IMG/VR virus record: IMGVR_UViG_3300045988_141150
Length of the DNA stretch: 40,350 nt
Strand: one strand, 5' to 3'
From: a virus
Shown here: piece after piece, positions 6,735 through 38,299 of the stretch
Position numbering within the stretch: position 1 is the first letter of the stretch
Layout of the letters: every line of letters begins with the position of its first letter
Translations under genes and position numbers: made by a program
Notes under the pieces: model-generated
What the model was told of the DNA's origin: nothing
The model's database searches: none
Seen by the model: only the letters and a program-made list of their open reading frames with translations

Positions 6735-6735
6735 A

Positions 6736-13280: not shown

Positions 13281-13325
13281 ATTTATAGAAAGTTAAAGAG
13301 AAGATAAAAAAAAGGAGAGACGCTT

Positions 13326-13595: not shown

Positions 13596-13610
13596 CAAGG
13601 AGTTTTAATT

Positions 13611-14209: not shown

Positions 14210-14212
14210 AGC

Positions 14213-20420: not shown

Positions 20421-20597
20421 TATATTATAAAGGAGTGATATAATTTGAAATATTGTGTTTCTGTGCGTCAACCTGATGTTGTTCGCGAGAAAGCTGATGA
20501 ACTTATGGTTAATTATAATGATATAAATATTATGTATGATATGATTTAGAAATTTCCAAATAAACGATATATTATCAGAATCCGCAAAAATGAAGAA

Positions 20598-20813
20598 GTG
20601 AATTGGGAAGAGATTGATTCATTTAAGGATAAAGTCGATCTTATTGTAGCATTTGAAGATATGCTTACCCGCAATGGATGTAATATTGATGTAAAGTATT
20701 ATTTTGCTTATCCTGCTACTACGTGGGCAGAAGTCCGCGTTCTCCTTGATCTTGGAGTTAGCGAACTTTTCATCGGGGCACCGCTTACATTTGATTTAAG
20801 ACAATTAAATTAG
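20598..20813 (+). CDS. Hypothetical protein of 71 aa with a GTG start. It may read through its TAG into the gene at 20835..21245.
   Basis: The ORF is in the track and ends in TAG. The downstream ORF is in the same frame, 7 codons later. Confidence 0.45.
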   Translation: MNWEEIDSFKDKVDLIVAFEDMLTRNGCNIDVKYYFAYPATTWAEVRVLLDLGVSELFIGAPLTFDLRQLN

Positions 20814-20834
20814 CAAGCAAAAGTTCCAATTCGT

Positions 20835-21245
20835 ATGATTGCGAATAAGTGCTATGACGATAACCTTCCAAGAGAAAATGGAATATGCGGTTCTTACGTT
20901 CGACCGGAAGACGTAGATTATTATGGAACATATGTCTCAACTTTAGAATTCGATGAACCTGCGCTCTCTAAAGAAGCTGTGCTTTTGGATATTTATCAAA
21001 GTGGTCATTGGCAAGGTAATCTAAACCTTTTATTAACTAATTTAAATTATAATGTGGATAATCGTGGAATTCCCGAAGATTTTGGCCCCAACCGCATCAA
21101 TTGCGGTCAGCGCTGTCAGCGACAAGGGACGTGTCATTATTGTGAAACCGCATTTATATTTTCTCGTGTTATAGATAAAGCCGTTCAAGCAAGTAAGCAG
21201 AATAATCCTATCCCCGAAGCGGAAGAAGACTCAATTGACAAATAA
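20835..21245 (+). CDS. Hypothetical Cys-containing protein of 136 aa.
   Basis: The ORF is in the track. Confidence 0.5.
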   Translation: MIANKCYDDNLPRENGICGSYVRPEDVDYYGTYVSTLEFDEPALSKEAVLLDIYQSGHWQGNLNLLLTNLNYNVDNRGIPEDFGPNRINCGQRCQRQGTCHYCETAFIFSRVIDKAVQASKQNNPIPEAEEDSIDK

Positions 21246-21296
21246 AAAAAATAATGTTATAATATAAATATAAGATAAAAGATAGGAGAATAAACT

Positions 21297-22403
21297 GTGA
21301 GAGGTTTTAAAACTAATGAACTTTGGTTATTTGAATATCTGGTTCGCTCGACACAAGATGAGTTAAGAGAATATGTTGCCGATGTATTGAAAGCTAAATA
21401 TACTGAAGTAGTTATTACTAAAGAGTATGTTTGTGCGGTTGGCGATATTCCTATTGCTTTAGTAGCTCATCTTGATACTGTGTTTGAGAAACCGGTCAAA
21501 GATTTATATTATGATACAAGAAAAAATGTGCTTTGGTCGCCCGATGGTCTTGGCGCAGATGATAGAGCAGGAGTATATGCGATTCTTCATATTTTGAGAA
21601 ATACATCTTTGCGTCCTTCTATTATTTTTACCACTGATGAAGAAATTGGTGGATTGGGCGCCGAAGCATTAGTATTACAATATTTTGAGTGTCCATTTCC
21701 CAATCTGAAATATATTATTCAGTTGGATAGACAAGGCACAAATGATTGTGTGTTTTATGACCTTTACAATCCTAAATTCATTGATTACATTGAATCTTTT
21801 GGATTTGTAGAGGATTTTGGCACGTTTAGTGATATTAGTGTTTTATGTCCTGAATGGAAAATTTGTGGCGTGAATCTTTCAGTAGGTTATAAAAATGAAC
21901 ATAACCGTATTGAAACATTAAATGCGGGTGCTCTTTTTGATACGATTAATAAGGTAATCCGCATGCTCAAAGAGAAAGATATTCCTAATTTTGAGTATTA
22001 TCGTAATTATCATAGTATTTGGTTCGATAATATTTGTAAGAATTTTCCAACTGATGGCGATGGATTCTACGTTCATTGTAGAGGATGCGGTCAGTTATTT
22101 AGTGAATATGAAACATTTCCAGTAAAGGGATTAGATGGACATACATGTTTTTATTGCCCTGATTGTATTCCCAGTAATGTTGAATGGTGTGCGGAGTGTG
22201 AAGAGGCATTTGAGATTGACCCTGCGAACCCACACAGCGAGTATTGTAAAGATTGTATTGGAGGATTAGTCAAATGTCATATGACTTCGACATCGAAAGC
22301 ATTAAAGAACAGTTCAACAAAGTCATCAGTTACTCCCAAGGAATCAGTAATCCAAAAACAGAAGAACTATTCGAAAGATTCCTCGAAGCCAAAAAAGACT
22401 TAA
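21297..22403 (+). CDS. M20/M28-like Zn metallopeptidase domain followed by a C-terminal zinc ribbon. The true 3' end is uncertain.
   Basis: The motifs HLDTV, DGLGADDRAGV and TTDEEIGGLGA are present, with CxxC pairs at the C-terminus. The last 130 nt overlap the next gene in another frame. Confidence 0.5.
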   Translation: MRGFKTNELWLFEYLVRSTQDELREYVADVLKAKYTEVVITKEYVCAVGDIPIALVAHLDTVFEKPVKDLYYDTRKNVLWSPDGLGADDRAGVYAILHILRNTSLRPSIIFTTDEEIGGLGAEALVLQYFECPFPNLKYIIQLDRQGTNDCVFYDLYNPKFIDYIESFGFVEDFGTFSDISVLCPEWKICGVNLSVGYKNEHNRIETLNAGALFDTINKVIRMLKEKDIPNFEYYRNYHSIWFDNICKNFPTDGDGFYVHCRGCGQLFSEYETFPVKGLDGHTCFYCPDCIPSNVEWCAECEEAFEIDPANPHSEYCKDCIGGLVKCHMTSTSKALKNSSTKSSVTPKESVIQKQKNYSKDSSKPKKT

Positions 22404-23704
22404 TTAAATTTTTTCACGGTCATTTAATTTATGAATGGCCGGAAAAGGTATCTTTTTCCTTAGATGATAAAACTAAAGAGCATCGTCTTGAAGAGTTTCT
22501 TGAAACAATTAATTATACTTATAATAATGAAGACTTAAAGGATTTTATTTCAGTAAATAAAGAAGGATTCTTTAACAATACAGTTATAGATACTTATTTC
22601 TATAAAGATAAAAAGATTCCAAGAGGAATGAAATTAGTTAAGGCTTTTAAGTATTTTGAAGAGAATCCACGCTCTTTGGAAGATATTCAGAATTACGCAA
22701 GTCGTATTATCCAAGAGGACAAGATTGAGGGAACATTATGTTTCTCAGTTCATCCTTTGGATTTTTTAAGCGTAAGTGAAAATACTTATAATTGGCGCTC
22801 TTGCCATGCACTTGACGGCGAATATAGAGCAGGAAATTTATCTTACATGGTAGATAAAAGCACTTTTATTTGTTATTTGCGCGGAGCAGAGAATCAGAAA
22901 CTTCCGCATTTCCCTGAAGATGTTCTTTGGAATTCTAAGAAATGGCGTATGCTTCTTTACATGGAAGATAAGCGACGTGGTTTAATGGCTGGTCGTCAAT
23001 ATCCTTTTATGACAACCAATGCTTTAATTAAAATTAAAGATATTATCAATACTTTTGATAAGACTTTTCAGTTGCGTGAATGGGTAGATGGAGGTATTAA
23101 TACTGTTTCTAATAGGATGAGCACTACTTCTTTTGATGAAGAAACTATTGGATTATCCGAGACATGGATTCCTATTTTATCTCGTTTATATCCTATTAGT
23201 GATATTGTTGAAGATATTGGCGAGCATACTCTTCAATATAATGATTTGCTTTATTCTTCTTGCTATTTACCCATTTATAGTTTAAAATTGTATTATTATC
23301 CATTAGAGACTGATCTTCCTCATTGGTCTATTGGTGGCGATGTCCCTTGTTTACAATGCGGTAAAACTATTATCGAAAGTGGAGAATATATGCGATGCGG
23401 AGACTGTGAATTCAATTATGGAGTAAACGAAGATGATAATTACGGTTATTGCGCTTGTTGCGGTTCTCGTATAATCCTTGATGAAGCAAATTCCGTAGGC
23501 GATGAGAATGAATTGGTTTGCGATAGTTGTGCAGATACTTATTGTAAACGATGCGAATGTTGTAATAATTTATATTATACAGAAGATATTCACTATCATA
23601 AAGGAACTGATATGTATTTATGTCCTTGGTGTTTTAGAGATGCTGATGAAGAAAAAGTTAATAATTTTAGGTCTTTAAAAGACTTTATACATAATTTTAG
23701 TTAA
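22274..23704 (+). CDS. Large protein with C-terminal zinc ribbons. It is a paralogue of the gene at 18141..19745.
   Basis: ATG at 22274 follows a GGAGGATTAGTC RBS, within track ORF 22253..23704. Confidence 0.6.
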   Translation: MSYDFDIESIKEQFNKVISYSQGISNPKTEELFERFLEAKKDLIKFFHGHLIYEWPEKVSFSLDDKTKEHRLEEFLETINYTYNNEDLKDFISVNKEGFFNNTVIDTYFYKDKKIPRGMKLVKAFKYFEENPRSLEDIQNYASRIIQEDKIEGTLCFSVHPLDFLSVSENTYNWRSCHALDGEYRAGNLSYMVDKSTFICYLRGAENQKLPHFPEDVLWNSKKWRMLLYMEDKRRGLMAGRQYPFMTTNALIKIKDIINTFDKTFQLREWVDGGINTVSNRMSTTSFDEETIGLSETWIPILSRLYPISDIVEDIGEHTLQYNDLLYSSCYLPIYSLKLYYYPLETDLPHWSIGGDVPCLQCGKTIIESGEYMRCGDCEFNYGVNEDDNYGYCACCGSRIILDEANSVGDENELVCDSCADTYCKRCECCNNLYYTEDIHYHKGTDMYLCPWCFRDADEEKVNNFRSLKDFIHNFS

Positions 23705-23716
23705 GGAGAATTAGAT

Positions 23717-24022
23717 ATGGCTAAAGGTACAGTAGCTAAGGAACAGATCGCCAAGAAAATGGCGGAAGTATTTGGCGCTGATTGGATCGGCGAGCGAGAT
23801 AAAAAGTATTATCTTTGGGCTAACGAGAATGGTGAGCGAATTCAAATTGCTATTAGTATGACATGCCCAAAGACTCCGGTTGGTGAAGCAGGTGCAACCA
23901 CGGATTCAAATGTTTTGAATTTTGAAGATGGGGCAACCGCAGGTGGAGAAACCCCGATTGAAATTACTACAGATGAAAAGAAAAATGTTGCTGATTTGAT
24001 GGCAAGATTAGGATTGAATTGA
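23717..24022 (+). CDS. Hypothetical protein of 101 aa.
   Basis: The ORF is in the track, with an AAGGAGAATTAGAT RBS. Confidence 0.55.
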   Translation: MAKGTVAKEQIAKKMAEVFGADWIGERDKKYYLWANENGERIQIAISMTCPKTPVGEAGATTDSNVLNFEDGATAGGETPIEITTDEKKNVADLMARLGLN

Positions 24023-24027
24023 TTTAA

Positions 24028-24062
24028 AGAGTAATGTCATTTGACATTACTCTTTTTTTTTG
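24028..24062 (+). terminator. Rho-independent terminator at the early/late boundary.
   Basis: Hairpin AGAGTAATGTCA-TT-TGACATTACTCT followed by a run of nine T. Confidence 0.75.
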
Positions 24063-24194
24063 TTATTATTTATTTAGTAAAAATGATAAATGGTTAGGTT
24101 TAACCGAAATTAAAAAATAAAATAAAATAAATTTTTAATAAAAATAGGATATATAGTATCCTAATTATTTATTTTATTAGGAGGAATTTTAATA

Positions 24195-24611
24195 ATGACT
24201 GAATTAAATAATACCTTTAAGGTAGTTGTTACTGACAATGAAGGCAAAGAGACTGAAAGTATTATAACTGGTCCTATTGTTTTTTCTACAAGTATTAATG
24301 GAGAAACTAGCGGAATTAAATATACTTTTAGACTTCGTGAATATTCAAAAGGCTATGATGTTGAAACTTTAAGTTTACCTAAAGTTTCTGCTCAGCTTAT
24401 TGGAAATTTTGATCGTTCAAAGGTTGCTAAAATTGGTGTATATTATTTAGCTGTTTCTAATGATTATAGAAAAGTTTTTGAAAAAAATGTTGCCAATATT
24501 GCTGAAATGGTATTCGAATATAATAATGATATTGGAGATAAGTCATATGCTAATAGTTATAACACTATAGCAGAGCTTAATATAACTTATACTCCCGAGG
24601 CTGTAAATTAA
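24195..24611 (+). CDS. Hypothetical protein of 138 aa, the first gene of the late block. It contains no TAG.
   Basis: The ORF is in the track, with a TAGGAGGAATTTT RBS. Confidence 0.55.
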   Translation: MTELNNTFKVVVTDNEGKETESIITGPIVFSTSINGETSGIKYTFRLREYSKGYDVETLSLPKVSAQLIGNFDRSKVAKIGVYYLAVSNDYRKVFEKNVANIAEMVFEYNNDIGDKSYANSYNTIAELNITYTPEAVN

Positions 24612-24624
24612 GGAGAGAATATAA

Positions 24625-25347
24625 ATGGCTGGTAGTCGTATTTCATGGAGCGATGTTCGCGCTCTATATGATACTTTAAATACTGCTTAGACTCGTTTTT
24701 CTCAATCTCGCACGGCTGCTCCCTCAAATGAGGGGCGTCGTACGAGAGAAAGTGACATTACTACTTTAAAAAATGAAATTGAAAATTTAAGAAATGTTTC
24801 TTATGTAGGAACTTAGGCTACTTTTTCTAATTTTACCGCTCCAAGAGCTAATGAACTTATGAAACGAGTCCCTTTAGAGGAAATTAGAAGTAAACTTGAT
24901 ACTATAAATGGCATTTGCGCCTATGATGGAGCGAATTATACAAGCAATAATGGTTATCGTGGTGCTAACTATACAAGTAATAATAGTCAACGTTCTTCTT
25001 ATTATTCAAGTAATGATGCTCAACGTTCTTCTTATTATTCAAGTAATAATGCTCAACGTGCTTCAGATTATTCAAGTAATAATGCTCAACGTTCTTCAGA
25101 TTATTCAAGTAATAATGCTCAACGTTCTTCAAATTATTCAAGTAACTATACTTATTATACTGCTAATTATTCAAGTAATAATGGTCATAGATCTGCTAAC
25201 TATAGTAGTAATAATGGTAATAGATCTTCTAACTATAGTAGTAATAATTCTCAACGTTCTTCAAATTATTCAAGTAATTATACTTATAGAAGTGCTTATG
25301 CTTCTAGAAGTTCAAATCGTAGTGGCGCTGGTAGAGTACGCTCTTAA
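24625..25347 (+). CDS. Repeat protein of 240 codons with two in-frame TAG. About 12 tandem 11-residue repeats of the form (A/S)xY(S/T)SNNxQRS follow a 100-residue N-terminal region. It is a candidate multi-core RiPP precursor.
   Basis: ATG follows an AAGGAGAGAAT RBS. The frame is continuous with track ORF 24859..25347 through TAG codons at 24688 and 24814. The underlying nucleotides form a 33-nt tandem repeat. Confidence 0.55.
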
Positions 25348-25378
25348 TTTTTTGAGAAAAAGGAGTTTTATAATATAA

Positions 25379-26878
25379 ATGTTTAAAGAAATGGATATTA
25401 GAGCAATATCTTTAGTTTCTTCATGTGGATGTAATTTACATTGTAAATATTGTCTTATTGAGAATACTTTAAATAATTGCTCTGCAAATTTACAACATGA
25501 AACTATTAAAGCTTTAAATGATGGTACTTTTTTAAATAATGTAAAAGGTATTTTTAAACGTTTAAATCTTGATAGATATAAAATAGAATGTTTTACTTTA
25601 TGGGGTCAAGAGCCTACATTGACATTACATCTTCTTACTGATCATTTGGAAGATTGGTTTAATTATTTCCCAAATATTAATCATATTGACTATTCTACTA
25701 ATGGGATGGATTTTCCTGAAAGAACTGTTAATTTTATTAAAAAGGTTGATGAATTAGCAAATAATGAACTTGCTTTAGAAGTTCAATTCTCTTATGATGG
25801 CACTTACTCAACCAATAATATTAGAAATGCTAATAATGAAAAAATCTTTGAGACTGCTTCAACTGTAATTAAAGAATTAAATAAAATTAAATTTCATAAT
25901 GTAAATGTATCTATTCAATTACATGGTGTTCTTTCTGGAGCTTTAATTCATGAACTTAATACAACTCAAAAAGTTCATGATTATTATAAAGATTTAGATA
26001 ATTTTGGATTTGAATTAGCTGATATTAATCTTAATTAGAGAGTTGAAGTAAATAGTAGTGTATCTATTTGCCCTGAGAATCCAAGAGATGGATCAGTTGA
26101 TGAACGTATTGAATATGAGTCTTTCTTACAACGCATTGTTAATATTGATGTAAGTGATTTTCATGACCCACATCTTCCAGTTAGTATTATTATTGGTTAT
26201 CGTCATCTTTATGAAGAAGTATTTTCTGATTTACATGGATTTACTGGAGAAGATCGTCCAATTACGCCCCAAGAATTAATGCGATTAGTTATGGAAGGAA
26301 ATCAAGAAGCAATTACTGTAGCTTCAAGAAATAATTTTTGTAGTGGTAATTTTAATGAATTAAAATTACTTTATGATGGTACTATGATGTCTTGTCAAAA
26401 CTTTATGTTTGATCTTGATGGTAATAATGTTAAAGATGATGGTACTATTGGAGCACAATTGAGAAAAGACACTCGTCGCACTAAAACTGATTGCATTAAT
26501 CTTTTAACTGATAGTGAAGAAGATATTAATAAAGTTATATATAAATATAATATGTATAAAACACATTCCTTCCCATTTATGTTTCAAGCAACTGTAAATA
26601 CTTTACAAATGCTTAATGAATGCAATCAATTAAATTCTATTTACAAGTATAATCCTGATAAATTATTAAGATTGGCATTAATTGCAACAAAAATTGATGC
26701 TTGTACTTATAATAATTTTATTTCTTCTGGTAGCGCGTTGTTAAGAAGTGTAGGCACTTTAAGAACTCAATCAGCACTATTTATGTATGTAGATAGAGAA
26801 AATAATTTACTTAAACCCGAAGAAGAATGGTTCCGAAATACTGAAAATATGAATGAATATAGAGGAGAAAGTAATTAA
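25379..26878 (+). CDS. Radical SAM enzyme of about 499 codons with one in-frame TAG at 26036.
   Basis: It carries CGCNLHCKYC, a CxxxCxxC motif. Track ORFs 25379..26038 and 26279..26878 are in the same frame, joined through a TAG with no TAA or TGA between them. Confidence 0.6.
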
Positions 26879-28281
26879 TGAATATTAGTGAAGGTTGTCA
26901 ATTAGATAATAATAAATATTTTGAAAAATTTATAGATAATTATATTTTTAATAGGGATCACCAAGAGGAAGGATACTGGATTAATGGAGAGTCTTTTGAG
27001 CTTATTATAAGACCCGAATGTAATCAACAATGTGAATATTGTTATGTTGCACGGTATGGAGATAAACTCTATCCGATGGAGAAACGCGCCGATAAGGAAA
27101 CTCTTGTTCATAATACAGATATTATTTTGAATTATATCTTTAAAGAAAGAAAAGTTTTATTTCATGAAATGGAACTTTTTGCTGGAGATTTATTTTATGA
27201 TGATATTGGATTTGAAATTCTCGAATTAATGTTTAAATATTATAAAGAATTATTTGATGAACATCCAAATATTTTTAATTTCCATCCTCGTATTGTAATT
27301 CCTAATAATTTTAGTTTTGCTATTGATGATAAAAAAGCTAAAAAAATGGAAGAGCTTTTAGCTAAATTTAAAACTATCAATATGGAAATAAGCCTTTCTT
27401 GTTCTATAGATGGACCTTATAATAGTGTGCGCGAGCGCGATAAAGATGATAGTTATTATACTAAAATTCTTGAATTCCTTCAAAGAAATCCTTGTGGTAT
27501 TCATCCTATGATTTCTCCAAGTAATATTGAGAGTGCTATTAAGAATTTTGATTGGTGGGACGAACAATATGAAAAGTATAATCTTGCTGGTGAAGACATT
27601 CATGATTTTCAACCTATGTATTTGGAAGTCCGCAATGATGAATGGACTGATGAGAAATTAGATCATTATCTTGAATTTTTAACTCATATGCTTGAAGTAA
27701 GATTTCATAAAAATGGTGAGTCTGTAGATAAATTGGCAAGACATATTTTCTTAGGAGATGGAAAAGAAGGTTCTTTACCTTGTCTTGGTAATTATGACCC
27801 TATTGGATTAACTTCTACTTGGAATAGTGAAGAATATACTTGCGCGATTTCGCATTAGACTTGTCTTTATGTGGCGAGTTTTGAATTTGCGCCTTGCCAT
27901 AGAACTTCTTATCCTCAGTTTCTTGGTGGACGTCTTGATGTAAAAGATGACAAAGTAGTTGGTATTACTGCAATTAATCCTACTGTGTATAGTGTAATTA
28001 AAACGAATAATACACATATGAATATTGGTTGTTTAACTTGTCCTTTTGATCCTTATTGTTTAAAAGGATGTTTAGGCGCTCAGTATGAAGCCACAGGTGA
28101 TTTATTTGTTCCCGGTGAAAGCGTTTGTAAATTACATAAAACACATTTAACTTTTTTAGTAAAGACTTATTGTGAGTTGGGATTAACTAAAATTGCAGTT
28201 GAAAAAAATTATTTTAAGAGTGAAGCAGATAAAGAAAAATGGCTTACTTTATGTCGTAAATTGGGGTATTATAATGATTGA
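26878..28281 (+). CDS. Radical SAM/SPASM-domain enzyme of about 467 codons with one in-frame TAG at 27856.
   Basis: It has an N-terminal CNQQCEYC radical SAM motif. Its C-terminal Cys cluster CLTCPFDPYCLKGCLG...VCKLH has the SPASM pattern. Track ORFs 26878..27858 and 27871..28281 are in the same frame. Confidence 0.6.
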
Positions 28282-28576
28282 AGAAATGAAAAGACAAATT
28301 CAACACTTAGATGATACTTTTGATCCTTCTAATGTTGGAGATTATAAAGATTTATTATATGTAATCTATTTAAATTGGATTGAAAATAATGGAGAAAACG
28401 AAGAAGTCAATTCTCTTATTAACAATTTAATTAAAAGAATTATTGATTCTAGCATTAATGATAATAATAATTGTGATAATTGTAATGAAGATGAAGATCC
28501 TAATATGAGTGAAGATTATTTAATTTATCGCCATTTCTTAGGATATAAAATTCCTGGCTATTGGCGTAATCATTAA
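28274..28576 (+). CDS. Small acidic protein of 100 aa. It could be an accessory protein or a precursor.
   Basis: ATG lies in the frame of track ORF 28193..28576 and overlaps the upstream TGA. Confidence 0.45.
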   Translation: MIEEMKRQIQHLDDTFDPSNVGDYKDLLYVIYLNWIENNGENEEVNSLINNLIKRIIDSSINDNNNCDNCNEDEDPNMSEDYLIYRHFLGYKIPGYWRNH

Positions 28577-29157
28577 TGTTAATTAATTTATATAATGCTC
28601 GTCAAACTTTATTAAGATCAGTAAAGTTTGACGAGCGTGAATGCGATGATATTGTTTTTGGATTAAATTTTCCAAAAGAAATTACTTTTTGCAAAATTGT
28701 AAATAATTCAAATGATATAGAATATTCTTCATTAAATTATCTATATAGTCAATTAAAAGATTTAGAATATAAAGATATAAAAATTATTGAATTAGTTTTT
28801 AATCAAAAACAAAAATTTACGTTTGAATCTACAGTAAAATCTATTTTTTATAGAACAATGTTATATTCAAGTTAGGGACAATTGGAATTTAAATTATATT
28901 TAACTTTACGATTTGAAGAAGAACATCCAATTATTTACGATAAAGAAGAATAGATTTTAAAGTGTGACAAAAATTGTAAACAGTTAAATAGAAAAATACA
29001 TCGTTGTGAATTTTTTCATAGTGATTTAAATGATATAAATGAAATTTGTACGGAATGTTTTTTGTAGGAAAGAGATAACCAAATAAAAGAATTGGTTAAT
29101 TATAATAGAGATATTATAAATGTTTTGGAGAATAAATATGGAAATAGATAGAACTAA
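28576..29157 (+). CDS. Hypothetical Cys-containing protein of about 193 codons with four in-frame TAG.
   Basis: It extends track ORF 28576..28875 through TAG codons to a TAA at about 29155. Confidence 0.4.
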
Positions 29158-31216
29158 AAATTATCAAGGGATTCCTCCTTATACTAATCCAATATGGAAA
29201 TCGGTTTATGATGGTGTTAGTTTAGAAATGCATATTGTAGATCATTGTAATCTTAATTGCGCAGGATGTAATCATTTTTCCCCTTTAGCAGAACCTTGGT
29301 ATATTGATTTAGATGATTTCCGTGATCAGATTACTTTTGCTTATAAAAAAATTCCAAATATAAAACTTTTTATGATTTTAGGTGGAGAACCTACTTTGCA
29401 TCCAAAATTATTTGAAATATGTTAGATTGCTAGAGAAGTTTTCCCAAAAAATAAAGTAGAAATTAAAATATTAAGCAATGGGTGTCATTTACAAGATGCT
29501 TTTAAACATGAGAAAGAATATCAAGATATGGGAGTAATATTTGATATTACTACTTATGGGAAATATACTGATCATAAAGCGGTAGAATATTTAGACAGTC
29601 ATGGTTTAGGTTTTAATCATAATTCAAGATTATTTATGCGACAATAGCTTGTAAATGAAGCAGGAACTACTGATATAAATGAAGTATATTTTCATAAATG
29701 CCCGCATTAGTTACCTTGTTTTACTTTAAAAAATTATAAAATTTATATATGTCCTTTTTCTGCACATTTGGATATTTATAGAAAAAAATATAATGTAAAT
29801 ATTCCAGAAGATGAAAGTGATTATTTGCGATTAGAGGATATAAATAATTTAGATGATTTACATAATTTTATTTTTAAGCCTAAAAATATTTGTAGATATT
29901 GCGATGGAACTATGTCTAAAGCCTCTTGGATTTGGCACAAATATTATGATACAAAATCGGAATTTATAGTTCCAATGGAAGATGCTTATTTTAGAGATTA
30001 TGATTTTTATTTAAAATTAGTTAATGATAAAGAAAATTTTTTAGAAAATTATTAGTTATTTAAAGAAAACAGATGCCCAATTGAATTTAGATATAATACT
30101 TATTATTTAAAAAAATGTTTTACTCGTTTTATTGATGGAAAAATGGATATTATAATACCTTATTATAATATGAATGATTAGCAAATTATTAATTTGTATA
30201 ATAATTTATCTACCCAAACAATTATAAAAGATTGTTGTGTATATTTTATTAGCGACCATTCTTTCTATGATAAAAAACTTATTGAGATATTTGATGAAGC
30301 GAGTTTTCCTTGTTTCTTTTTTAAGAATTTAAAACGAAAAGGACCAGGTCTAACTCGTAATTTAGGATTAGAATATTCTTTTAATAAATATGTGTTATTT
30401 TGGGATTCTGATGATTTATTCCCAAATGATAATGTTTTAGAAATTTTATATAATTCAATAAAACATAATGAGAAAGATTTTGGAGTATTTAAAATAGCTA
30501 ATACTGATAAATCAGTTGAAAAGATTAATTTAATTCTTAAAAGAGATTTTCTTAATAAAAATAATATAAAATATTCAAAATTTTTCTTTGGAGAAGACAG
30601 TATTTTCTTGGATAGATGTGATATTTATGGTGAATCTTATGAGTTAGAAGACTAGAATTTAGGTCTTTATATAACTTAGTTAGAAGACAATCCTAATTGT
30701 TTATCTCATTCTAATTCTAACATGGTAATTACAGCATATATTAATAAAATAATTGTATTTTTTGCTAATTTTATTGATGTTTTGAAATTAGAAAATATTG
30801 ATGAAAATCGTAAACAAAGTACTTTAAGACGGAATCTTTATAGAATTATTAATGAAATAAAATCAATAAGTGATTTAGATTCTTCTTTTTATGGATATGA
30901 AAATAATTATTTTTTAGAAAAAATTCTTCTTTTAATTTATTATATTTTATATACTATGTATAATTTATATAGTAACAAAGAAGATTTTAATAATATTCCC
31001 AATTTGTGTAATTTAGATAAACAAATTATAGAAGATATCAAAAGTTAGAAAATTAAATTTAGTCTTCTAAGAGGAGAATGTATAACTAATTTTGATGATA
31101 TTAAAAATGAAATTTATCCATTGTTAAATTATCTTAACAATGAATTATGCTATGTGCCTACTTATGAATGGTTTCTGAATTATTTAGATGGAAAAGGAGA
31201 GAGTATTTATGATTGA
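29138..31216 (+). CDS. Continuous 692-codon frame with 9 in-frame TAG and no TAA or TGA. It has an N-terminal radical SAM domain (CNLNCAGCNH, GGEPTLHP and a C-terminal CRYCDG) and a central GT2 glycosyltransferase domain (IIIPYYN...GPGLTRNLG...FWDSDD). It is one fusion protein or two to three cistrons.
   Basis: Track ORFs 29120..29425, 29768..30055, 30194..30655 and 30722..31048 all share one frame and are separated only by TAG. The frame ends at a TGA at 31214. Confidence 0.5.
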
Positions 31217-31391
31217 AACTTATCAAGAATATAAAGAAAAAGTTTATTTTCTTCTAAATAATTTTTTAGATTTTACTAAAGGAGATAAACCTTATTTATT
31301 TAATATGCCTTCAAAATTAGGCAATCTTCCTAATCTAAATGAATATTTATATTTTTGTTTTAATAAATCTGATGCAGGAGAAAATAAATGA
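31209..31391 (+). CDS. Small protein of 60 aa.
   Basis: ATG follows an AAAGGAGAGAG RBS, in the frame of track ORF 31188..31391. It ends in TGA. Confidence 0.45.
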   Translation: MIETYQEYKEKVYFLLNNFLDFTKGDKPYLFNMPSKLGNLPNLNEYLYFCFNKSDAGENK

Positions 31392-31930
31392 GGTTTACTG
31401 ATTATCATTTTGGATAGGCAGAGTCTGACTTTTGGACTTTATTAAAAGAATTTCTATTAAGGTTTGATCCCAATAGTATTTATGATTTTTGGATTTTATT
31501 TATTTATTTTTAGTTAGGTATTATTAGAAAAGATAGATTTATCATTTATTAGGTATAGTATATTTTAAAAGAAAAAATAGATTTTGAAGAAATTAATGAA
31601 GTAAATTTTAATACAATTATTCCAATAGAAAAGATAAATTTATCTAGTTTAAAAGATTGTATTTGGATAAGCTATTGGATTTGTTAGTATAATTATTAGA
31701 ATGATGAAAATTTAATTTTAATTTATAGTGAGAAAATATTTAATAATCTTACTAATATTTTTGAGCCGGATATTGTTATAGATATTCCAATAGTGTAGTA
31801 GAGTAATAAAATATGTAAAATGTGCGGTTTAGAGTCTAAATCTAATGGATAGAATATACCATTTTTTAAAATAAATGATAATAAATATTTATGTCCTAAT
31901 TGTTATTATTTATTAAAATTAAATGAATAA
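31388..31930 (+). CDS. Hypothetical protein of 180 codons with a C-terminal CxxC...CxxC zinc ribbon. It has about 10 in-frame TAG.
   Basis: ATG overlaps the upstream TGA. The frame is free of TAA and TGA for 543 nt in a region of about 25% GC. It is invisible to the standard-code track. Confidence 0.4.
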
Positions 31931-32023
31931 TTATTAAAACCTACTTTTATAGTAGGTTTTAATTGATTTTTAATAAAAAATAATGTATTATAATTATAAG
32001 ATAAATGAAAAGGGTGTGTTTAT

Positions 32024-33808
32024 GTGAATAATTATAATCAACATTATAAAGAAATAAGTCCTATTGAGACTGTTAATAATATTAAAAATTTTTTAGAAGG
32101 ACGCGGATTTACTTGTGTTGAGGAAGCTTTACGACAAGAACAATCAACTACTTGGAGTCTTGTATTAAATCTTGAATACAAAGGACATTTTGTGCTAAAA
32201 ACTTATGGCAAAGGTGTTACAAAAGAATTCGCCAGAGCTTCTGGTTATGCGGAAATGTATGAGCGTTTTTGTAATGGAATGCACTATCTTTGTAATTCTT
32301 TTCTTTGTGCGGAAAAAATTGAATTAAATAGAAAAAATTATGGTTATTCTTTGTTTAAAAATGAAAAGCCTTTAAGTTATAAAGAGGCACTTGGAGGAGA
32401 AGATACTCTTTTATATAAACTTTTTGATCGTTTGAATAAGAAAGATAATGGTTTATTAGAGGATTATTTTAAAACTATTTATAATAATGAATTTTTTGGA
32501 ATACCATTTAAAGGAGTCAACATTAATAAAACTTTATATATGGATCCTCGTCTTCTTCAACGTTATCATGGTAGTTCGGGAATGGCAGCCGGCAATACTT
32601 TTAATGAAGCCTTAAATCAAGGTTTATCTGAAATTTTCGAGCATTATGTTTTAAGTAATTTTTATATTGATATTGATAATAAAGATTTTTATTTTTATGA
32701 TACAGATAGTATTAAAGATGAAAAATTAAAAAATATTATTAGTGCGATTAAATCTCATAATAATAACTTTTATATTATTGATATGTCAAGAACTTATAAT
32801 GTGCCTGTTATGGTAGCAATTTTGATTAATAAATATAGTGGTACTGTAGCTATTAATTTTGGTGCTTTCCCTGTATTTGAAATTGCAGTTGAGCGAGTTT
32901 GTACTGAAATGTATCAAAATTGTTTTTCTTTTGATACAAGAAAAACTTCAGTTGTATCTCCGTATTATTCTTTAGATAAAGAAGATATGGTTATAGATGG
33001 CGGTTCTTGTATTACAAATCTTAATACTTTTCCTGAGAGTTTATTCTTGAATAAGAAATTTGTAAATACTATTAATAAAGATGTATTTTTATCTTATACT
33101 GATAAAAATTACTCTAATGATGAAATCTTAGAGCATAATAAAAAGATTGCTACTAATATTGGAGCAGATATTTATTGTGCTGATGTATCTTTAATTGATA
33201 CCGTATCTGCGATTAGTATTTATGTTGATAATCTTGACGGGCTATGGAAATCTTTCTTTGATAGATGCCAAGGAGTTAAAGAAACTGGAGAAGCAATTAC
33301 TATAACTAAAAATAAACATTTGGCCATTAAAAACTATTTAAATAATAAAGATAAAGTATATGATGTAATTAAATATTGTCTTGATTATTATAATATTACT
33401 TTTGACAAAATTGTAGATAGATTTTGTGGTTTACTTACTCATGGAGATCAATTAGTTGCTTATAATAATAAAAATATATTATTAACACCTAATGAGATGT
33501 TTGTTAAAAACCTTTATATGGATGCAACAGGATATTTATTAGAAGATGAAGGATTTTCTTTAGATATTTCAGTTAGTTGTTTTTATACTTATTATAAAAA
33601 ATATTTAACTTTATTAGCATATGTTCACAGTAGAAAATATACTAAAGAAGATATGATTAAAATTTTCAAAGAATTTGATTATACTTTTACTGATGAAGAT
33701 TTTAAACATATTACGGATAGAAAATATTTAGTAGAAAAATGTATTTTAGAGCCTATGTATAATACATTTAGAAGCAATGATTTTAAAGAAATGATTAAAA
33801 ATTATTAA
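32024..33808 (+). CDS. YcaO-domain protein of 594 aa.
   Basis: HGSSGMAAGNTFNEALNQGLSEIFEHY matches the YcaO ATP-binding signature, which has the form xGSNGLAsGNTxxEAxxQGLxExxER. The ORF is in the track and has no TAG. Confidence 0.65.
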   Translation: MNNYNQHYKEISPIETVNNIKNFLEGRGFTCVEEALRQEQSTTWSLVLNLEYKGHFVLKTYGKGVTKEFARASGYAEMYERFCNGMHYLCNSFLCAEKIELNRKNYGYSLFKNEKPLSYKEALGGEDTLLYKLFDRLNKKDNGLLEDYFKTIYNNEFFGIPFKGVNINKTLYMDPRLLQRYHGSSGMAAGNTFNEALNQGLSEIFEHYVLSNFYIDIDNKDFYFYDTDSIKDEKLKNIISAIKSHNNNFYIIDMSRTYNVPVMVAILINKYSGTVAINFGAFPVFEIAVERVCTEMYQNCFSFDTRKTSVVSPYYSLDKEDMVIDGGSCITNLNTFPESLFLNKKFVNTINKDVFLSYTDKNYSNDEILEHNKKIATNIGADIYCADVSLIDTVSAISIYVDNLDGLWKSFFDRCQGVKETGEAITITKNKHLAIKNYLNNKDKVYDVIKYCLDYYNITFDKIVDRFCGLLTHGDQLVAYNNKNILLTPNEMFVKNLYMDATGYLLEDEGFSLDISVSCFYTYYKKYLTLLAYVHSRKYTKEDMIKIFKEFDYTFTDEDFKHITDRKYLVEKCILEPMYNTFRSNDFKEMIKNY

Positions 33809-33819
33809 TAGGAGATTAT

Positions 33820-34698
33820 ATGAATATTAATTTTAATTGCCCTGAATTTTACTATGGGATTGAAGTATATGATAAACTTTTTGAATTACAAGAAATTGCT
33901 CCAGAAGCATTTTATCCAGAAGCCAAGGTAAAGTATATATATGGCTGTCTTCCTAATATGATTTGGAATGGTGGCGGATTTATGGATGGACGTCCAGAGC
34001 ATAATATTGATTATCTTTGCGCAATGCGTGATTTTTATGAAAAAAATAATATTATTTTACGTTTTACATTGACAAATCCGCTTTTAGAAGAAACTGACGT
34101 TTATGATAGATACTGTAATGAAATGTTAAAACTTTTTGATAATGGTATTAATGAAATTATTGTTAATTCTCCTATTCTTGAGCGCTATCTTCGAGACAAA
34201 TTTCCTAATTATAAGTTGACTAAAAGTATTACGGCAGCAAAAGAAGATTATGATTTTGTAAAAGCTCTTGATAATTATGAAAGCATTGTCCTTCCTCGTC
34301 GTCACAATAGAAATTGGGAACTTCTTGATTCTATTCCAAAAGATAAAAGAGAGAAAATTGAAATTCTTGCTGATGAAAGTTGTCCTATTGATTGTCCTCG
34401 TCTTTATACTCATTACAATGTTTTTGCAAATTTTAGTTTGTTTAAAAAAATTGATGACTCTCAGCGTAATTGTACTACTATGAAAAATAATGGCGCAGTT
34501 TTTCCTGAAATTGATAATAAAGATATGATTTATATGGATGAAATTTTAAATACTTATTTACCAAAAGGATATAATAATTTTAAGATTTCTGGGCGCAATT
34601 GCGCTGACCATTGTGCAAAATCTATTACTCCGTATTTTTTTAAACCAGAATATCAATTAGAAGGTTTTTGCGAGTTGCTCGATATTGGTTTGAGTTGA
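33820..34698 (+). CDS. Hypothetical protein of 292 aa, possibly a partner of the YcaO protein.
   Basis: The ORF is in the track. It begins 12 nt after the YcaO stop and has several Cys pairs. Confidence 0.5.
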   Translation: MNINFNCPEFYYGIEVYDKLFELQEIAPEAFYPEAKVKYIYGCLPNMIWNGGGFMDGRPEHNIDYLCAMRDFYEKNNIILRFTLTNPLLEETDVYDRYCNEMLKLFDNGINEIIVNSPILERYLRDKFPNYKLTKSITAAKEDYDFVKALDNYESIVLPRRHNRNWELLDSIPKDKREKIEILADESCPIDCPRLYTHYNVFANFSLFKKIDDSQRNCTTMKNNGAVFPEIDNKDMIYMDEILNTYLPKGYNNFKISGRNCADHCAKSITPYFFKPEYQLEGFCELLDIGLS

Positions 34699-34702
34699 TT
34701 TT

Positions 34703-34741
34703 AACTCCTTACTATTTTATTTAGTAAGGAGTTTTTTTTTT
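34703..34741 (+). terminator. Rho-independent terminator.
   Basis: Hairpin AACTCCTTACTA-N7-TAGTAAGGAGTT followed by a run of ten T. Confidence 0.75.
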
Positions 34742-34822
34742 ATTTAACCAGATTAAATTAATGACTTCTTATAAATTTTTAAATTTTATAGAAATAATAA
34801 AATTTATAAGGAGGTCATTTAA

Positions 34823-35377
34823 ATGGCAATTCCAAAAGCAATAGAACATATGCGTAGTGGAAGTGGCGGTTTAGAAATTATTCCAATTATTTCTACTGAT
34901 GGATTAACTTACACAGGAACCGCAAAATCTATTAAAGAATATAAAGACGGAATGATTATTGGTCTTATTCCAAATATGAATAATATTGCGACAAATCCAA
35001 TTACTAATATAACGATAAATATAAATAATTTAGGAGCATTAAAATTAACTCAATATTATATTAAAAAAGAACATTCTAATAATGGATTAGGGTGTTGGCA
35101 CAGCAATACTGCTGTAGAAGCCAATTTTTTATATAAAGATGAAGCTTTTATTGGATAGATACAATTAGGGTCATCTAGTGGTGATTATATTTTACCTATT
35201 AATCCAGGATTAGACTTAGCTTAGATTACTAATGGTTCTATTGGGTCTAATTTGTCTGTCACTGCTAATTCTTCTTATTTAAACAATAATATTTTAAGAA
35301 ATATTAAAGTATCTACTTCTGCTCCCACCGCTTCAGACGGAAATGTTGGAGATATTTGGATTTAGTATTTCACTTAA
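34823..35377 (+). CDS. Putative virion or tail protein of 184 codons with three in-frame TAG.
   Basis: Track ORF 34823..35158 continues in frame through TAG to a TAA at 35375. An AAGGAGGTCATTTAA RBS lies upstream. Confidence 0.45.
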
Positions 35378-35393
35378 TAGAGGAGGAATTTAA

Positions 35394-36809
35394 ATGCCAA
35401 ATACTTATAATCCTTCTGGAACTTCTATAACAGATTATTCTTCTATTAAATTTATTCCAGGAGATATTATTAATAGTAGCTATTCAGGAGCGGTAAATCC
35501 AGTAAAACTTCCAACGGGAAATTATCAATTAGAATGTTGGGGTGGCTATGGTGGAATTGGTTATTCTGGTTCTTTAACTTCATCAACAACAACTTCATGG
35601 ATATATATAGGAACTAATAATGCAACTAGTTATTTTAGCATTAATAATGATTCAAATTATTATTTCCGTCAAGATGGAAATGACTGGATAGCTACAAATG
35701 GCGGTATACATTCAAGTACTGCAACCACTACATTAACTTGTACTTCTGCGGGAACTTACAAGATTTATTATTATTATCAGACTGAAGTAAATTGTGATAA
35801 AGTTACTTTAACTGTTGGAGGATCAACGGTTTTAAATGCCGTATCGGGGTCATAGTCTTTAACTGAAGCTGGTAGCTATTCTTTATCATCAGGGTCTACT
35901 ATTGTAATGACTTATTCTAAAGATAGTTCAGTAAATGCCGACAATGAAGAAGTTTATTTTTAGATTTAGAAATAGGAGAGTAATACTACTTATACTCCCA
36001 CAAGTTCAAAAAATAGTTATTGGGGTGGAGCAGGAGGATATTCTACAGGAATTCTTTCTTTATCAGCCCCTACTGTTATCTATTTGTATACAGGAGGTTA
36101 GGGTAATTATTCAAGTAATAGTGAAAAAGGAAAAGTAGTTAGTGGCGGATTTAACGGAGGAGGTAGCTCTAGAATCAGATGGTATACTTCTGCTTATACA
36201 TCAGGAGGTGGCGGAGGTGGCGCTTCCGATGTTCGTATAGGCCAAGACTCTCTTTACGCCCGTGTAATTGTTGCTGGCGGTGGTGGCGGTGGCGCAGGAG
36301 AAAGCAATTCTTCTATTAAATAGGGCGGTGGATTAACTGGTAATTCTGCTGTTGAAGAATATAAAGCTACGTAGACTAAAGCCGGAACAAATGGATCTTT
36401 TGGCCAAGGGGCTGATGCTAGTGGATCTGCCAATTATAATTATGGTCCCGGTGGTGGTGGTGGAGGCTGGTACGGTGGTGGTGCTTCTACTAATGTTAGT
36501 GACAGTTCCGCCGATTATAGAACTTATAATGGCGGAGGTTCTGGCTATGTATATACTTCATCAACTGCCTCTAATTATCCTTCTGGCTGTTTGTTAAATA
36601 GTAATTATTATTTAACAAATGCTTCTACTGCTATAGGATATAGTAAAACCAATCCAGGAGGGCAACATGGGTATATTCGTATTACAGTATTATCTCCATT
36701 AAATGTAAAAATTAATCCTAACACCTATGCTCCTATTAAAGCAATATATACAAAAATAGATAACACAACTTGGAAAGGAGGAATGACTACATGGCAACCT
36801 ATGACTTAA
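35394..36809 (+). CDS. Glycine-rich tail-fibre-like protein of 471 codons with 7 in-frame TAG.
   Basis: Track ORFs 35394..35855, 36352..., and 36591..36809 share one frame. The N-terminus contains LPTGNYQLECWGGYGG. The C-terminus contains SGYVYTSSTASNYPSGCLLNS...GYIRITV. Confidence 0.55.
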
Positions 36810-38128
36810 CTTCTTCGATTCCTTCTTCTTCTTCTTTAAGAACGGGGGATATATTAAATTGTCCTTATAGTGGATCTGCTAAATCAATTACTCTTCCAAA
36901 AGGCACTTATAAATTAGAATGTTGGGGAGCACAAGGTGGAAATGCAGGTTATTATAGTTATGTTCATTCAACCCCTAATGGAGGAAAAGGTGGATACTCT
37001 ACTGGTGTAATCACTTTATCTTCAAGTGTTATAGTATATCTTTATACCGGAGGACAAGGAGGAAGTACTATCGGGAATAAGCTAGACTAGAATTCAGTAG
37101 CTACAGCACCTGGTGGATTTAATGGAGGTGGCATCGCTAATCAAATGGGAGCCGCTGGTGGTGGTGGAGCTTCTGATATTCGCATAGGCCAAGATTCTCT
37201 CTATGCTCGTATAATCGTCGCTGGAGGCGGTGGTGGTGGAGGCAATGCGAGTAGTTCTACTTTATTATCTTGTGGCGGAAATGGTGGAGGAACTACTGGT
37301 GGAACTCCACCTAATTAGCACAATAATAGAACCCCAGGAAAAGGAGGAACTCAAACTGGAATAACAGCTAGTCGTTCATCATCAATTTCTGCGGGATTTG
37401 GTAATGGAGCTGGTGGTACGGGAGAAAATCTTCGTGGAGCCGGTGGCGGTGGCTGGTATGGTGGAACTATGGGTGAAAATTCAACTGGCGGAGGTGGAGG
37501 TTCTGGTTATGTATATACTTCCTCAACTGCTTCTAATTATCCATCTGGTTGCTTATTGAATAGCACTCATTATCTTAGTTCTGCTTCTACAATAGCTGGC
37601 GACACTTCATTCACTTCTCCAACAGGGTCATCTGAAACAGGTCATAGCGGAAACGGGTATATAAGAATTACTATTTAGTCTATTGTTAACTGGGCTTATT
37701 CTACTGTATCAATTCCTGCTCCTACTTATAGTAAATAGGATACTTCTTCTTGGACTTTATCTCCGAGTGCTTGCAGGTATTTTTCTTTTACCCCTACTAT
37801 TTCAGGAGATTTTATTGTTTATTCCAATTCTTCAATAGATACTTTTGGCTATTTAACATCAAATATTGTTTCTCTTAATAGTAGTGGATAGCCTTCTTCT
37901 AATATTTTAGCTAGTGATGATGATTAGGCAAAAAAATATGGTGGATCTGGAAGTAATTTTGGTATTTGTTATAAAGTTACTGCTGGAACTACTTATTATA
38001 TATATGTTAAGCCTTATCGTGATAGTACAGCAAATAGTTCAGTATATTTAACTTATTATATGGCTCATCCTGACAGTAGAGTATATGTAAAAACAGATAG
38101 TACAACATGGAAATTAATAACCAATTAA
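36791..38128 (+). CDS. Glycine-rich tail-fibre-like protein of 445 codons with about 8 in-frame TAG. It is a paralogue of the gene at 35394..36809.
   Basis: It shares LPKGTYKLECWGAQGG, SDIRIGQDSLYARIIVAGGGGGG and SGYVYTSSTASNYPSGCLLNS...GNGYIRITI with the upstream gene. It ends at a TAA at 38126. Confidence 0.55.
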
Positions 38129-38165: not shown

Positions 38166-38299
38166 ATATTTATAAAATAAAGAAAGACCTTTACAGCAAA
38201 AATAACTTCCAGAATAAACTAATGATTAAGTCATAATCCTTTAAGATTAAAATAATGGTTCAACTCCATTTTCCGGACAAAGTTAAGGTCTTGTTTTTA

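Follow-up and report, generated by a model that had tools for sequence, protein, structure and literature searches.

A predicted Escherichia coli-type YcaO enzyme as an optional part of a phage cassette encoding a hypervariable repeat protein and radical SAM enzymes

YcaO proteins and radical S-adenosylmethionine (SAM)/SPASM maturases typify the pathways by which bacteria and archaea make peptide natural products; they also characterize a small number of protein modifications, such as those of McrA and uL16. Those YcaO enzymes that form azolines need a proline-rich (PxPxP) C terminus. Three ATP-binding motifs are common to all YcaO proteins (PMC8120280). The enzyme of Escherichia coli, EcYcaO, is a TfuA-independent thioamidase that modifies Met82 of the folded ribosomal protein uL16 and needs ATP, Mg, and sulfide; its isoelectric point (pI) is unusually acidic, 4.4, and complementary to the basic uL16 (PMC13063428). 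Proteins of the U32 family, namely, UbiU/UbiV, RlhA, and TrhP, carry 4Fe-4S Cys motifs of the form CX6CX15CX3/4C or CXnCX12CX3C (PMC6747719), and large gut phages are known to read TAG as a sense codon (code 15) in their late genes (10.1101/2021.08.26.457843; PMC9523058). Here, we analyze a stretch of viral DNA of 40,350 nucleotides (IMG/VR record IMGVR_UViG_3300045988_141150; this whole stretch is called the window) that contains a YcaO gene at positions 32024 to 33808. The real unit at this locus is a cassette of 10.7 kb, from approximately 24.0 to 34.7 kb, of which YcaO is one optional part; its other members include a repeat protein, rep, and two radical SAM proteins, rSAM-A and rSAM-B. 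With moderate confidence, we read the YcaO protein as a catalytically competent, stand-alone enzyme of the E. coli type that serves as an optional tailoring enzyme in a phage-specific maturation cassette and acts on rep.

A first-pass annotation of the window had proposed a YcaO-domain protein of 594 amino acids (aa) at this position, based on the motif HGSSGMAAGNTFNEALNQGLSEIFEHYV. This open reading frame (ORF) is present on the plus strand as described, with the motif at residues 183 to 210 and without any sense TAG codon. Its start codon is the GTG at position 32024, which is preceded by a Shine-Dalgarno-like AAGGGTG and is consistent with the family consensus MxxxxxHYKE. The Pfam profile PF02624 matched residues 62 to 389 with an E value of 5e-28 (98.8 bits; cutoff, 25.7), and TIGR00702 also exceeded its cutoff (84.4 versus 75.65 bits). 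At these profile scores, the YcaO identity of the ORF is far beyond chance. When the NCBIfam models were ranked, the E. coli-type model NF040716 came out on top with 100.2 bits, far from its equivalog cutoff of 700. Low scores were obtained with TIGR03604, which represents SagD/McbD-type enzymes of thiazole/oxazole-modified microcin (TOMM) pathways (36.1 bits; cutoff, 219), and with TIGR03266, which represents the McrA-type YcaO proteins that pair with TfuA (33.5 bits; cutoff, 365). A profile built from the 24 members of the phage YcaO family retrieved EcYcaO (PDB 4Q84) with an E value of 5e-50, and MusD and TruD were also detectable as sequence matches of this family. Invariant in all 24 members are S73/E77/E80, N191/E195/Q199/E203/E206, and E290/R291/E295, blocks that align to EcYcaO residues 71/75/78, 187 to 202, and 285 to 290. 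The individual residues taken to bind ATP are those reportedly identified by Dunbar et al. (2014). Every ATP/Mg position is invariant across the family, which argues for retained catalysis.

The structural comparison agrees with the profile ranking. An AlphaFold2 model of the protein (predicted local distance difference test [pLDDT] score, 89.5) matched EcYcaO over its full length, approximately 620 alignment columns, with template modeling (TM) scores of 0.60 to 0.64 and an E value of ~1e-19. For the other YcaO types, namely, Methanocaldococcus jannaschii YcaO, LynD, TruD, MusD, and McbD, the query-based TM score was 0.47 or lower, and the top 41 matches of a Foldseek search of the PDB were all YcaO enzymes. 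The Foldseek alignment with EcYcaO structure 4Q86 (about 620 columns; query-based TM score, 0.60 to 0.63) further indicated the E. coli-type architecture of a YcaO domain followed by a C-terminal helical domain, which together span about 580 aa. The strongly acidic pI of EcYcaO is not shared, since the window protein has a pI of 5.71 and the family a median of 5.16 and a minimum of 4.85. Its C terminus, ...RSNDFKEMIKNY (ending FKEMIKNY), has no Pro-rich tail, and neither does the family consensus. Judged from these sequence and model comparisons, the window protein is an EcYcaO-like enzyme that lies outside the uL16 equivalog.

The candidate substrate, rep, is encoded at positions 24625 to 25347 (plus strand; 240 aa, 2 sense TAG codons) and, with a pI of 9.9, is the sole basic protein of the cassette. 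Its conserved N-terminal domain of approximately 100 aa ends at the conserved Cys97, and its C-terminal part is composed of 10.5 tandem copies of the 11-aa unit NYSSNNAQRSS (Ser/Asn/Tyr/Arg), which appear in the DNA at 24934 to 25278 with a period of 33 nucleotides (nt). ORFs of 156 to 162 aa that occur in other frames over this segment, such as that at 24859 to 25378 on the plus strand, are by-products of the repeats; the N-terminal domain is found only in the frame that starts at 24625. This domain is homologous to that of the protein located upstream of rSAM-A in related loci, although the repeats of these proteins are quite different: their units are NTNSTNANCC and GNHGQGCGR in locus L001, CSITCSNKCTAQACGRT in L022, FGFNGSNFSF in L011, NFGNFGDFG in L014, and GWSQGANGN in L059. 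As expected for the precursor of a ribosomally synthesized and posttranslationally modified peptide (RiPP), rep lies directly upstream of rSAM-A wherever it was detected, and several lineages in which the N-terminal domain was not found have divergent low-complexity proteins. Searches with the N-terminal domain gave nothing significant in PDB, PHROGs, Pfam, or NCBIfam, and only five truncated fragments were retrieved with the rep N terminus from a database of 5.8 billion proteins.

The two genes that follow encode rSAM-A (25379 to 26878, plus strand; 499 aa, 1 sense TAG codon, motif C17xxxC21xxC24) and rSAM-B (26878 to 28281, plus strand; 467 aa, 1 sense TAG codon, motif C48xxxC52xxC55), the latter with a Cys-rich, SPASM-like C-terminal half. 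The radical SAM profile PF04055 matched rSAM-A with 25.8 bits (E value, 1.3e-5) and rSAM-B with 15.9 bits, both under the gathering cutoff of 29.5, and the CX3CX2C motif is present in both proteins. The weak NCBIfam matches of rSAM-A were exclusively to peptide maturases, namely, PapB, YhhB, FibroRumin, and CbpB, and a weak match to a twitch domain was also noted. Those of rSAM-B were to HxsB, QhpD, nif11-rSAM, and SCIFF, and the SPASM model TIGR04085 scored 19.3 bits against a cutoff of 27. Among the weak resemblances of the two proteins are also the CXXX-repeat, CefB, and YhhB/XyeB maturases of RiPPs with repeated cores. Cysteines 322, 340, 385, 388, 394, 398, and 417 of rSAM-B are invariant, and the protein shares 30 to 37% identity with the rSAM-B proteins of distant loci. 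No match was obtained when rSAM-B was compared by tblastn with GenBank phages.

The distribution of these genes connects YcaO with rep and the radical SAM enzymes. In loci L001, L004, L010, L015, and L022, the genes for YcaO, the repeat protein, rSAM-A, and rSAM-B are directly adjacent in this order; in the window, the homologues of the last three lie at 24625 to 28281, 3.7 kb upstream of YcaO. The four genes are colocated in 17 of the 24 YcaO loci. Starting from rSAM-B, we retrieved 59 phage loci, and hidden Markov model tabulation of these loci revealed rSAM-A in 58 (adjoining rSAM-B), the rep N-terminal domain in 36, a U32-like gene in 39, and YcaO in 12. After clustering of rSAM-B at 90% identity, which left 30 nonredundant lineages, the corresponding counts were 30/30, 23/30, 16/30, and 8/30. 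These counts indicate that rep and the two radical SAM enzymes form the core, with YcaO and the U32-like protein as accessories that occur independently. In several genomes, the core is present in two distant copies (IMGVR_UViG_3300045988_175607, _177309, and _173030 and 3300028591_000087; loci L036/L046, L037/L049, L050/L075, and L068/L073), and L014/L033 (IMGVR_UViG_3300029705_000392) contains two tandem YcaO paralogues, at 13314 to 15059 and 15133 to 16902 of L033, beside the rep and radical SAM block.

The YcaO relatives were found only in metagenomes, and the contigs that carry them support the earlier view that the gene is phage borne: these IMG/VR contigs are 124 to 240 kb long, contain holin, baseplate, and fiber genes, and, like the window, are TAG recoded. 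Among 185,579 species-representative genomes, the closest YcaO relative was 27% identical. The only contig from a cellular bin with a full-length YcaO relative and the full block is L084, a 35-kb contig of a metagenome-assembled genome binned as Faecalibacterium.

Most of this context becomes visible only once the genetic code is considered. Three-frame translation showed that all stops interrupting the genes around YcaO at 20445 to 38128 are TAG, and the 19 long early ORFs stop at TAA (17 ORFs) or TGA (2 ORFs), never at TAG. Long ORFs are restored in the cassette region when TAG is read as Gln, and sense TAG codons pair most often with Gln codons of relatives (25 of 75 cases, mainly CAA). The phage in the window thus reads TAG as sense, with Gln as the most likely amino acid. 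We considered that the neighboring ORFs might be pseudogenes or frameshifted and rejected this idea in view of the exclusive use of TAG among the interrupting stops, the lack of TAG-terminated early ORFs, the alignment with Gln, and a tRNA with anticodon CTA in relatives. The first-pass annotation had overlooked the recoding, so that the repeat protein and radical SAM context was hidden. It had also placed YcaO in a late operon within a structural module; lateness finds only indirect support, through the TAG recoding of the surrounding genes, and none of the flanking genes in the window could be assigned to a family of capsid, portal, terminase, or tail proteins.

The density of sense TAG differs among the genes, with 9 in the 180 codons at 31388 to 31930, 8 in the 698 codons at 29120 to 31216, and 6 or 7 in each of the glycine-rich genes downstream of the cassette, compared with none in the 886 codons of YcaO and the U32-like gene and one each in rSAM-A and rSAM-B. 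Translation of the TAG-poor enzymes may be possible before that of the other genes in the cassette; alternatively, these enzymes may be more recent acquisitions. The tRNA(CTA) genes of the sister loci are 88 to 91 nt long, a length that suggests a long variable arm, and were labeled Pyl by ARAGORN. They are located approximately 24 nt upstream of YcaO in L001 (9889 to 9977), L010 (9886 to 9974), L015 (9889 to 9977), and L022 (9889 to 9976) and were also found in L002 (8845 to 8935) and L004 (16309 to 16397). Neither the window nor the flanks of its closest relatives yielded a tRNA(CTA) gene. A tRNA-like gene at 38208 to 38278 of the window (Rfam tRNA, 37.5 bits), the first of a tRNA array, has an apparent anticodon loop of 6 nt and was not assigned an anticodon by ARAGORN; it is conserved in L006 (10755 to 10825), L008 (16158 to 16228), and L009 (12758 to 12828).

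Three independent signals define one cassette at approximately 24.0 to 34.7 kb. (i) Its GC content is 20 to 30%, compared with 35 to 42% elsewhere in the window. (ii) Terminator-like hairpins are present at both edges, upstream at 24026 to 24055 (plus strand; 13-bp stem and T-run, overlapping the best promoter-like site at 24041 to 24069) and downstream at 34703 to 34733 (plus strand; 12-bp stem and T9). (iii) DNA identity to the sister phage L008 drops from 94 to 99% before the cassette to 63 to 79% inside and rises to 88 to 97% after it; YcaO itself is 63% identical to its L008 counterpart, compared with 95 to 98% for backbone genes. In L006, L007, and L009, the tRNA region directly follows the end of the cassette.

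In addition to the genes described above, the cassette contains several others, all on the plus strand. The first gene in the divergent segment encodes a protein of 138 aa (24195 to 24611) that shares 41% identity with the corresponding protein of L008, with flanking genes at 95 to 98%, and that had no match in Pfam, PHROGs, or PADLOC. Downstream of rSAM-B are a small lineage-specific ORF of about 100 aa (28274 to 28576), with homologues only in L006 to L009, and a lineage-specific ORF of 193 aa (28576 to 29157; 4 sense TAG codons) with the Cys pairs CDKNC...CTEC. They are followed by a fusion of a radical SAM domain with a glycosyltransferase family 2 (GT2) domain (29120 to 31216; 698 aa, 8 sense TAG codons), in which PF04055 matched residues 39 to 135 (E value, 2.5e-7) and PF00535 residues 344 to 488 (E value, 1.5e-11); a comparable fusion is located upstream of rep in L031. 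The last gene before YcaO is a lineage-specific ORF of 180 aa (31388 to 31930; 9 sense TAG codons) with a C-terminal CxxC...CxxC pair. Between these genes and YcaO there is a hairpin at 31933 to 31963 (plus strand; 13-bp stem, weak T tail) that may act as an internal attenuator.

Outside the cassette, three TAG-recoded genes at 34823 to 38128 encode a protein of 184 aa and a pair of glycine-rich proteins that contain an ALK/LTK-type glycine-rich domain (PF12810; E value, 3.9e-35); L008 has this block, whereas L006, L007, and L009 lack it entirely, indicating an indel. Just upstream of the cassette are genes for a peptidase-like protein (21297 to 22403; M28/M20, phrog_4191 "peptidase," E value of 3.8e-27) with a Cys-rich zinc-ribbon region at its C terminus and for a protein of 483 aa (22253 to 23704) that ends in a comparable region rich in Cys, both of which are 97 to 98% identical to their L008 counterparts. 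In the early, nonrecoded part of the window, the gene at 15112 to 15783 gave a strong match to DUF5052 (PF16475; E value, 2.4e-42).

The gene immediately downstream of YcaO (33820 to 34698, plus strand; 292 aa, no sense TAG codon) had been regarded as the partner in a two-component enzyme, with overlapping start and stop codons. The neighbor is real and follows directly, but the genes do not overlap: the last base of the YcaO stop codon, TAA, is 33808, and 11 nt, including an AGGAG site, separate it from the next ATG, at 33820. The proposed identity as TfuA or an E1-like partner was not borne out, as Pfam, NCBIfam, and fold searches of the gene product revealed neither, and Pfam scans found no TfuA match in any ORF of the cassette. 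The product instead resembles U32 proteins. Its match to PF01136 is weak (19.3 bits; gathering cutoff, 22.4), as are the matches seen in 5 of 27 members of a family assembled from metagenomic sequences, and its structure model (pLDDT, 88.2) is consistent with the U32 TIM-barrel fold. C188, C192, and C218 are invariant and suggest a putative iron-sulfur (Fe-S) site; the position of a fourth Cys varies, with C99 present in 81%, C7 in 74%, and position 184 in 59% of the 27 sequences. A tblastn comparison of this protein with GenBank phages matched only three unannotated fecal contigs. The pairing with YcaO is not supported by the gene distribution, since the U32-like gene was not found within 10 kb of YcaO in L001, L004, L010, L015, and L022 and is present without YcaO in many loci. 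Of the earlier interpretation, the YcaO enzyme, its intact ATP site, and its presence in a phage are thus retained, and the two-component pairing is not supported.

Taken together, the invariant core of rep and two radical SAM enzymes has common accessories: glycosyltransferases, a U32-family protein that is probably of the Fe-S type, and YcaO, which is present in about one-quarter of the lineages. From this arrangement we infer how the system might operate. The enzymes would recognize the conserved N-terminal domain of rep, as with a long RiPP leader or as EcYcaO does with folded uL16, and would then modify its hypervariable C-terminal repeats. YcaO, using ATP and Mg, would phosphorylate a backbone amide oxygen in the repeats, which a nucleophile would then replace; with sulfide as the nucleophile, the product would be a thioamide rather than an azoline. 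A thioamide is favored because the closest characterized relative is a TfuA-independent thioamidase, because features specific for azoline formation are absent from the window YcaO, and because some repeat units lack Cys, Ser, and Thr and the gut is rich in sulfide.

Several observations weigh against an action of YcaO on rep. The putative link between the two proteins comes from gene neighborhood, and YcaO is dispensable for the system, given its presence in 8 of 30 lineages; because the co-occurrence scans relied on peptide patterns and on flanks of 10 kb, their counts are lower bounds. In L002/L012 and L021, YcaO occurs without a BLAST match to the rep N-terminal domain, rSAM-A, or rSAM-B within 10 kb, and in L023 only a weak rSAM-A match on the opposite strand was found within this distance. 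The repeats of lineages with and without YcaO show no evident compositional difference or rule. Pfam and NCBIfam searches detected no RiPP recognition element (RRE)/PqqD-like domain, leader peptidase, or exporter in the cassette, where divergent versions are possible. TfuA, ThiS, or another gene for sulfur delivery is likewise not present in the cassette, and the thioamide proposal accordingly draws on analogy and on the sulfide-rich gut. Finally, the family is less acidic than the uL16-type YcaO proteins.

Some of these points suit the view that YcaO acts on a folded host or phage protein other than rep, for example, by thioamidating the host uL16 or a translation factor, and that its position in the cassette is incidental, accessory genes having gathered by tRNA arrays. 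The closest characterized relative by both sequence and structure is indeed EcYcaO, the modifier of uL16 (PMC13063428). In several lineages YcaO is located beside tRNA arrays, including L001, L010, L015, and L022 with the TAG-suppressor tRNA some 24 nt upstream, and the YcaO gene of L002/L012, which has no match to the rep N-terminal domain, rSAM-A, or rSAM-B within 10 kb, has a tRNA array, a tmRNA, and the suppressor tRNA in its vicinity; the window YcaO also lacks sense TAG. We nevertheless consider such a target unlikely, since the equivalog cutoff of NF040716 was missed widely (100 versus 700 bits), the pI is 5.7 (family median, 5.2) and not 4.4, identity to EcYcaO in the structural alignment is only about 20%, and YcaO adjoins rep in five lineages. 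That YcaO diverges along with the rest of the cassette (identity to L008, 63%, compared with 95 to 98% for the backbone) would also be unexpected for an enzyme with a conserved ribosomal target. L002, a phage contig of 188 kb, has further features of its own: a tmRNA (8249 to 8597; tag AKPYRLAA) and a gene for a ThiF-family protein (6728 to 7459) are located near YcaO, and two other radical SAM genes and one for a Cys-rich "CGYNC" protein lie about 9 kb from it. That ThiF gene, found only in this unrelated context, has no equivalent in the cassette, which bears on the idea that the latter is a classic azoline/azole TOMM or linear azol(in)e-containing peptide cluster, as for microcin B17, in which YcaO would cyclodehydrate Cys, Ser, and Thr of rep and the toxin would be freed at lysis. 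Repeats rich in Ser, Thr, or Cys beside Gly or Asn do recall microcin B17-type cores, cyclodehydratases are the best-known members of the YcaO superfamily, and MusD and TruD are detectable by sequence. Such a bacteriocin is nonetheless improbable in our judgment: TIGR03604 yielded 36 bits against 219, the protein is structurally much nearer to EcYcaO than to LynD, TruD, or McbD, and its C terminus lacks the Pro-rich motif needed by azoline-forming YcaO enzymes. In addition, no E1-like/Ocin-ThiF partner, flavin mononucleotide-dependent dehydrogenase, leader peptidase, or exporter was found among the cassette ORFs with Pfam and NCBIfam (Pfam only for the 138-aa ORF), and the units of L014 (NFGNFGDFG) offer no Cys, Ser, or Thr.

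The proximity of the suppressor tRNA could also indicate that YcaO belongs to the code-change machinery of the phage and aids the reading of TAG as sense. The tRNA(CTA) abuts YcaO in four lineages, YcaO and the U32-like gene of the window have no sense TAG in 886 codons, and "code-change modules" in the standard code have been described upstream of recoded genes (10.1101/2021.08.26.457843). However, sense TAG is still used in the cassette genes of 25 of the 47 loci without YcaO within 10 kb, and it occurs inside YcaO genes themselves (7 in L030, 4 in L048, 1 in L068, and 1 in L033), which consequently cannot act before the code change; we give this explanation very little weight. Similarly hard to credit is a role of YcaO as a noncatalytic scaffold or chaperone that presents rep to the radical SAM enzymes, akin to the older idea of a RimO accessory factor. 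YcaO is genetically linked with two radical SAM enzymes, and EcYcaO was historically annotated as the accessory factor of such an enzyme; this role has itself now been called into doubt (PMC13063428), and all ATP/Mg-binding positions are invariant across the phage family. An optional, catalytically competent tailoring enzyme that acts on rep remains our preferred reading.

With regard to function, the allele-like divergence seen in the cassette and the presence of glycosyltransferases suggest that the product is under diversifying selection, for example, as a virion-surface or host-interaction determinant, and rep is possibly displayed on the virion. A low-GC allelic island in an otherwise near-identical genome is a pattern typical of such selection and is associated with host range, immune evasion, or competition. 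We tentatively propose, as a broader and rather speculative interpretation, that these loci are interchangeable, serotype-like cassettes of TAG-recoded gut phages, in which RiPP-type chemistry builds a heavily modified hypervariable repeat protein that is displayed on the virion or directed against the host or competitors. The chemistry meant here, equally tentative as part of the same proposal, would comprise cross-linking by radical SAM enzymes, backbone activation by YcaO, U32-type Fe-S chemistry, and glycosylation. If true, this would be the first YcaO chemistry, and the first multienzyme RiPP-like pathway, that a virus applies to its own protein. A phage cassette that combines YcaO and radical SAM enzymes with a hypervariable repeat protein would extend such chemistry to viruses, and a phage relative of EcYcaO with a candidate substrate next door could clarify how stand-alone YcaO enzymes recognize substrates and obtain sulfur. 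The cassette also offers uncharacterized radical SAM and U32 subfamilies with ready-made panels of substrates. Annotation in the standard code misses these genes, since TAG recoding truncates or fragments the calls.

In line with the remark of the first-pass annotation that no such enzyme was known to it in structural modules of virulent phages, no counterpart turned up in the resources inspected. Among 50,697 deposited phage records there was no equivalent, the sole match being E. coli ycaO in a prophage-derived record. A megablast comparison with GenBank phages gave no match for the phage in the window. No YcaO fold was matched among the BFVD viral structures at E values of 0.001 or below, PHROGs and PADLOC contained nothing for YcaO or the U32-like protein, and our literature search brought up no description of a YcaO from a phage or of a comparable phage RiPP cassette. 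The superfamily and the logic of RiPP biosynthesis are known; their combination, their occurrence in a virus, and the behavior of the cassette as an allele appear to be undescribed.

A comparison with the closest described systems summarizes what is shared and what is particular to this locus. Large TAG-recoded gut phages (Borges et al.; Peters et al.) resemble the phage in the window in that sense TAG is concentrated in late-type genes and in that the relatives of the window carry tRNA(CTA), come from gut samples, and have contigs of 100 to 200 kb; the respective papers (10.1101/2021.08.26.457843; PMC9523058) mention no YcaO or radical SAM cassettes. The product of the gene downstream of YcaO shares with U32 Fe-S proteins a weak PF01136 match, conserved cysteines that include a CX3C pair, and a modeled fold like that of Mk0906 (PDB 5D88). 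It differs from them in its score below the Pfam gathering threshold and in its spacing, C188-x3-C192-x25-C218 with a variable fourth Cys, and the known members act on quinones or RNA, with none known for proteins.

EcYcaO (PDB 4Q84/4Q85/4Q86) is the best structural and sequence match of the phage YcaO. Both are two-domain proteins of about 590 aa that conserve the three ATP/Mg motifs and stand alone, without an E1-like, TfuA, or dehydrogenase partner, and the phage enzyme, like EcYcaO, plausibly targets a protein that is recognized through a folded domain rather than a short peptide. In contrast to EcYcaO, to which it is approximately 20 to 29% identical, the phage YcaO scores far under the NF040716 cutoff, is not strongly acidic, and sits in a phage cassette with radical SAM enzymes and a repeat protein; a hypervariable repeat protein is the likely substrate, in place of a conserved ribosomal protein. 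The cassette itself is most reminiscent of RiPPs with repeated cores (PapB/freyrasin ranthipeptides, HxsB, CXXX-repeat, CefB, and YhhB/XyeB), in which the precursor likewise combines an N-terminal recognition region with short tandem core motifs and its gene directly precedes one or two radical SAM/SPASM genes. Unlike in these systems, the radical SAM proteins of the phage score far under the NCBIfam family cutoffs, no RRE, peptidase, or exporter was found in the cassette, and a domain of roughly 100 aa takes the place of the "leader" in a protein of 150 to 480 aa. The phage system is further set apart by being phage borne and TAG recoded and by the company of YcaO, a U32-like protein, and glycosyltransferases.

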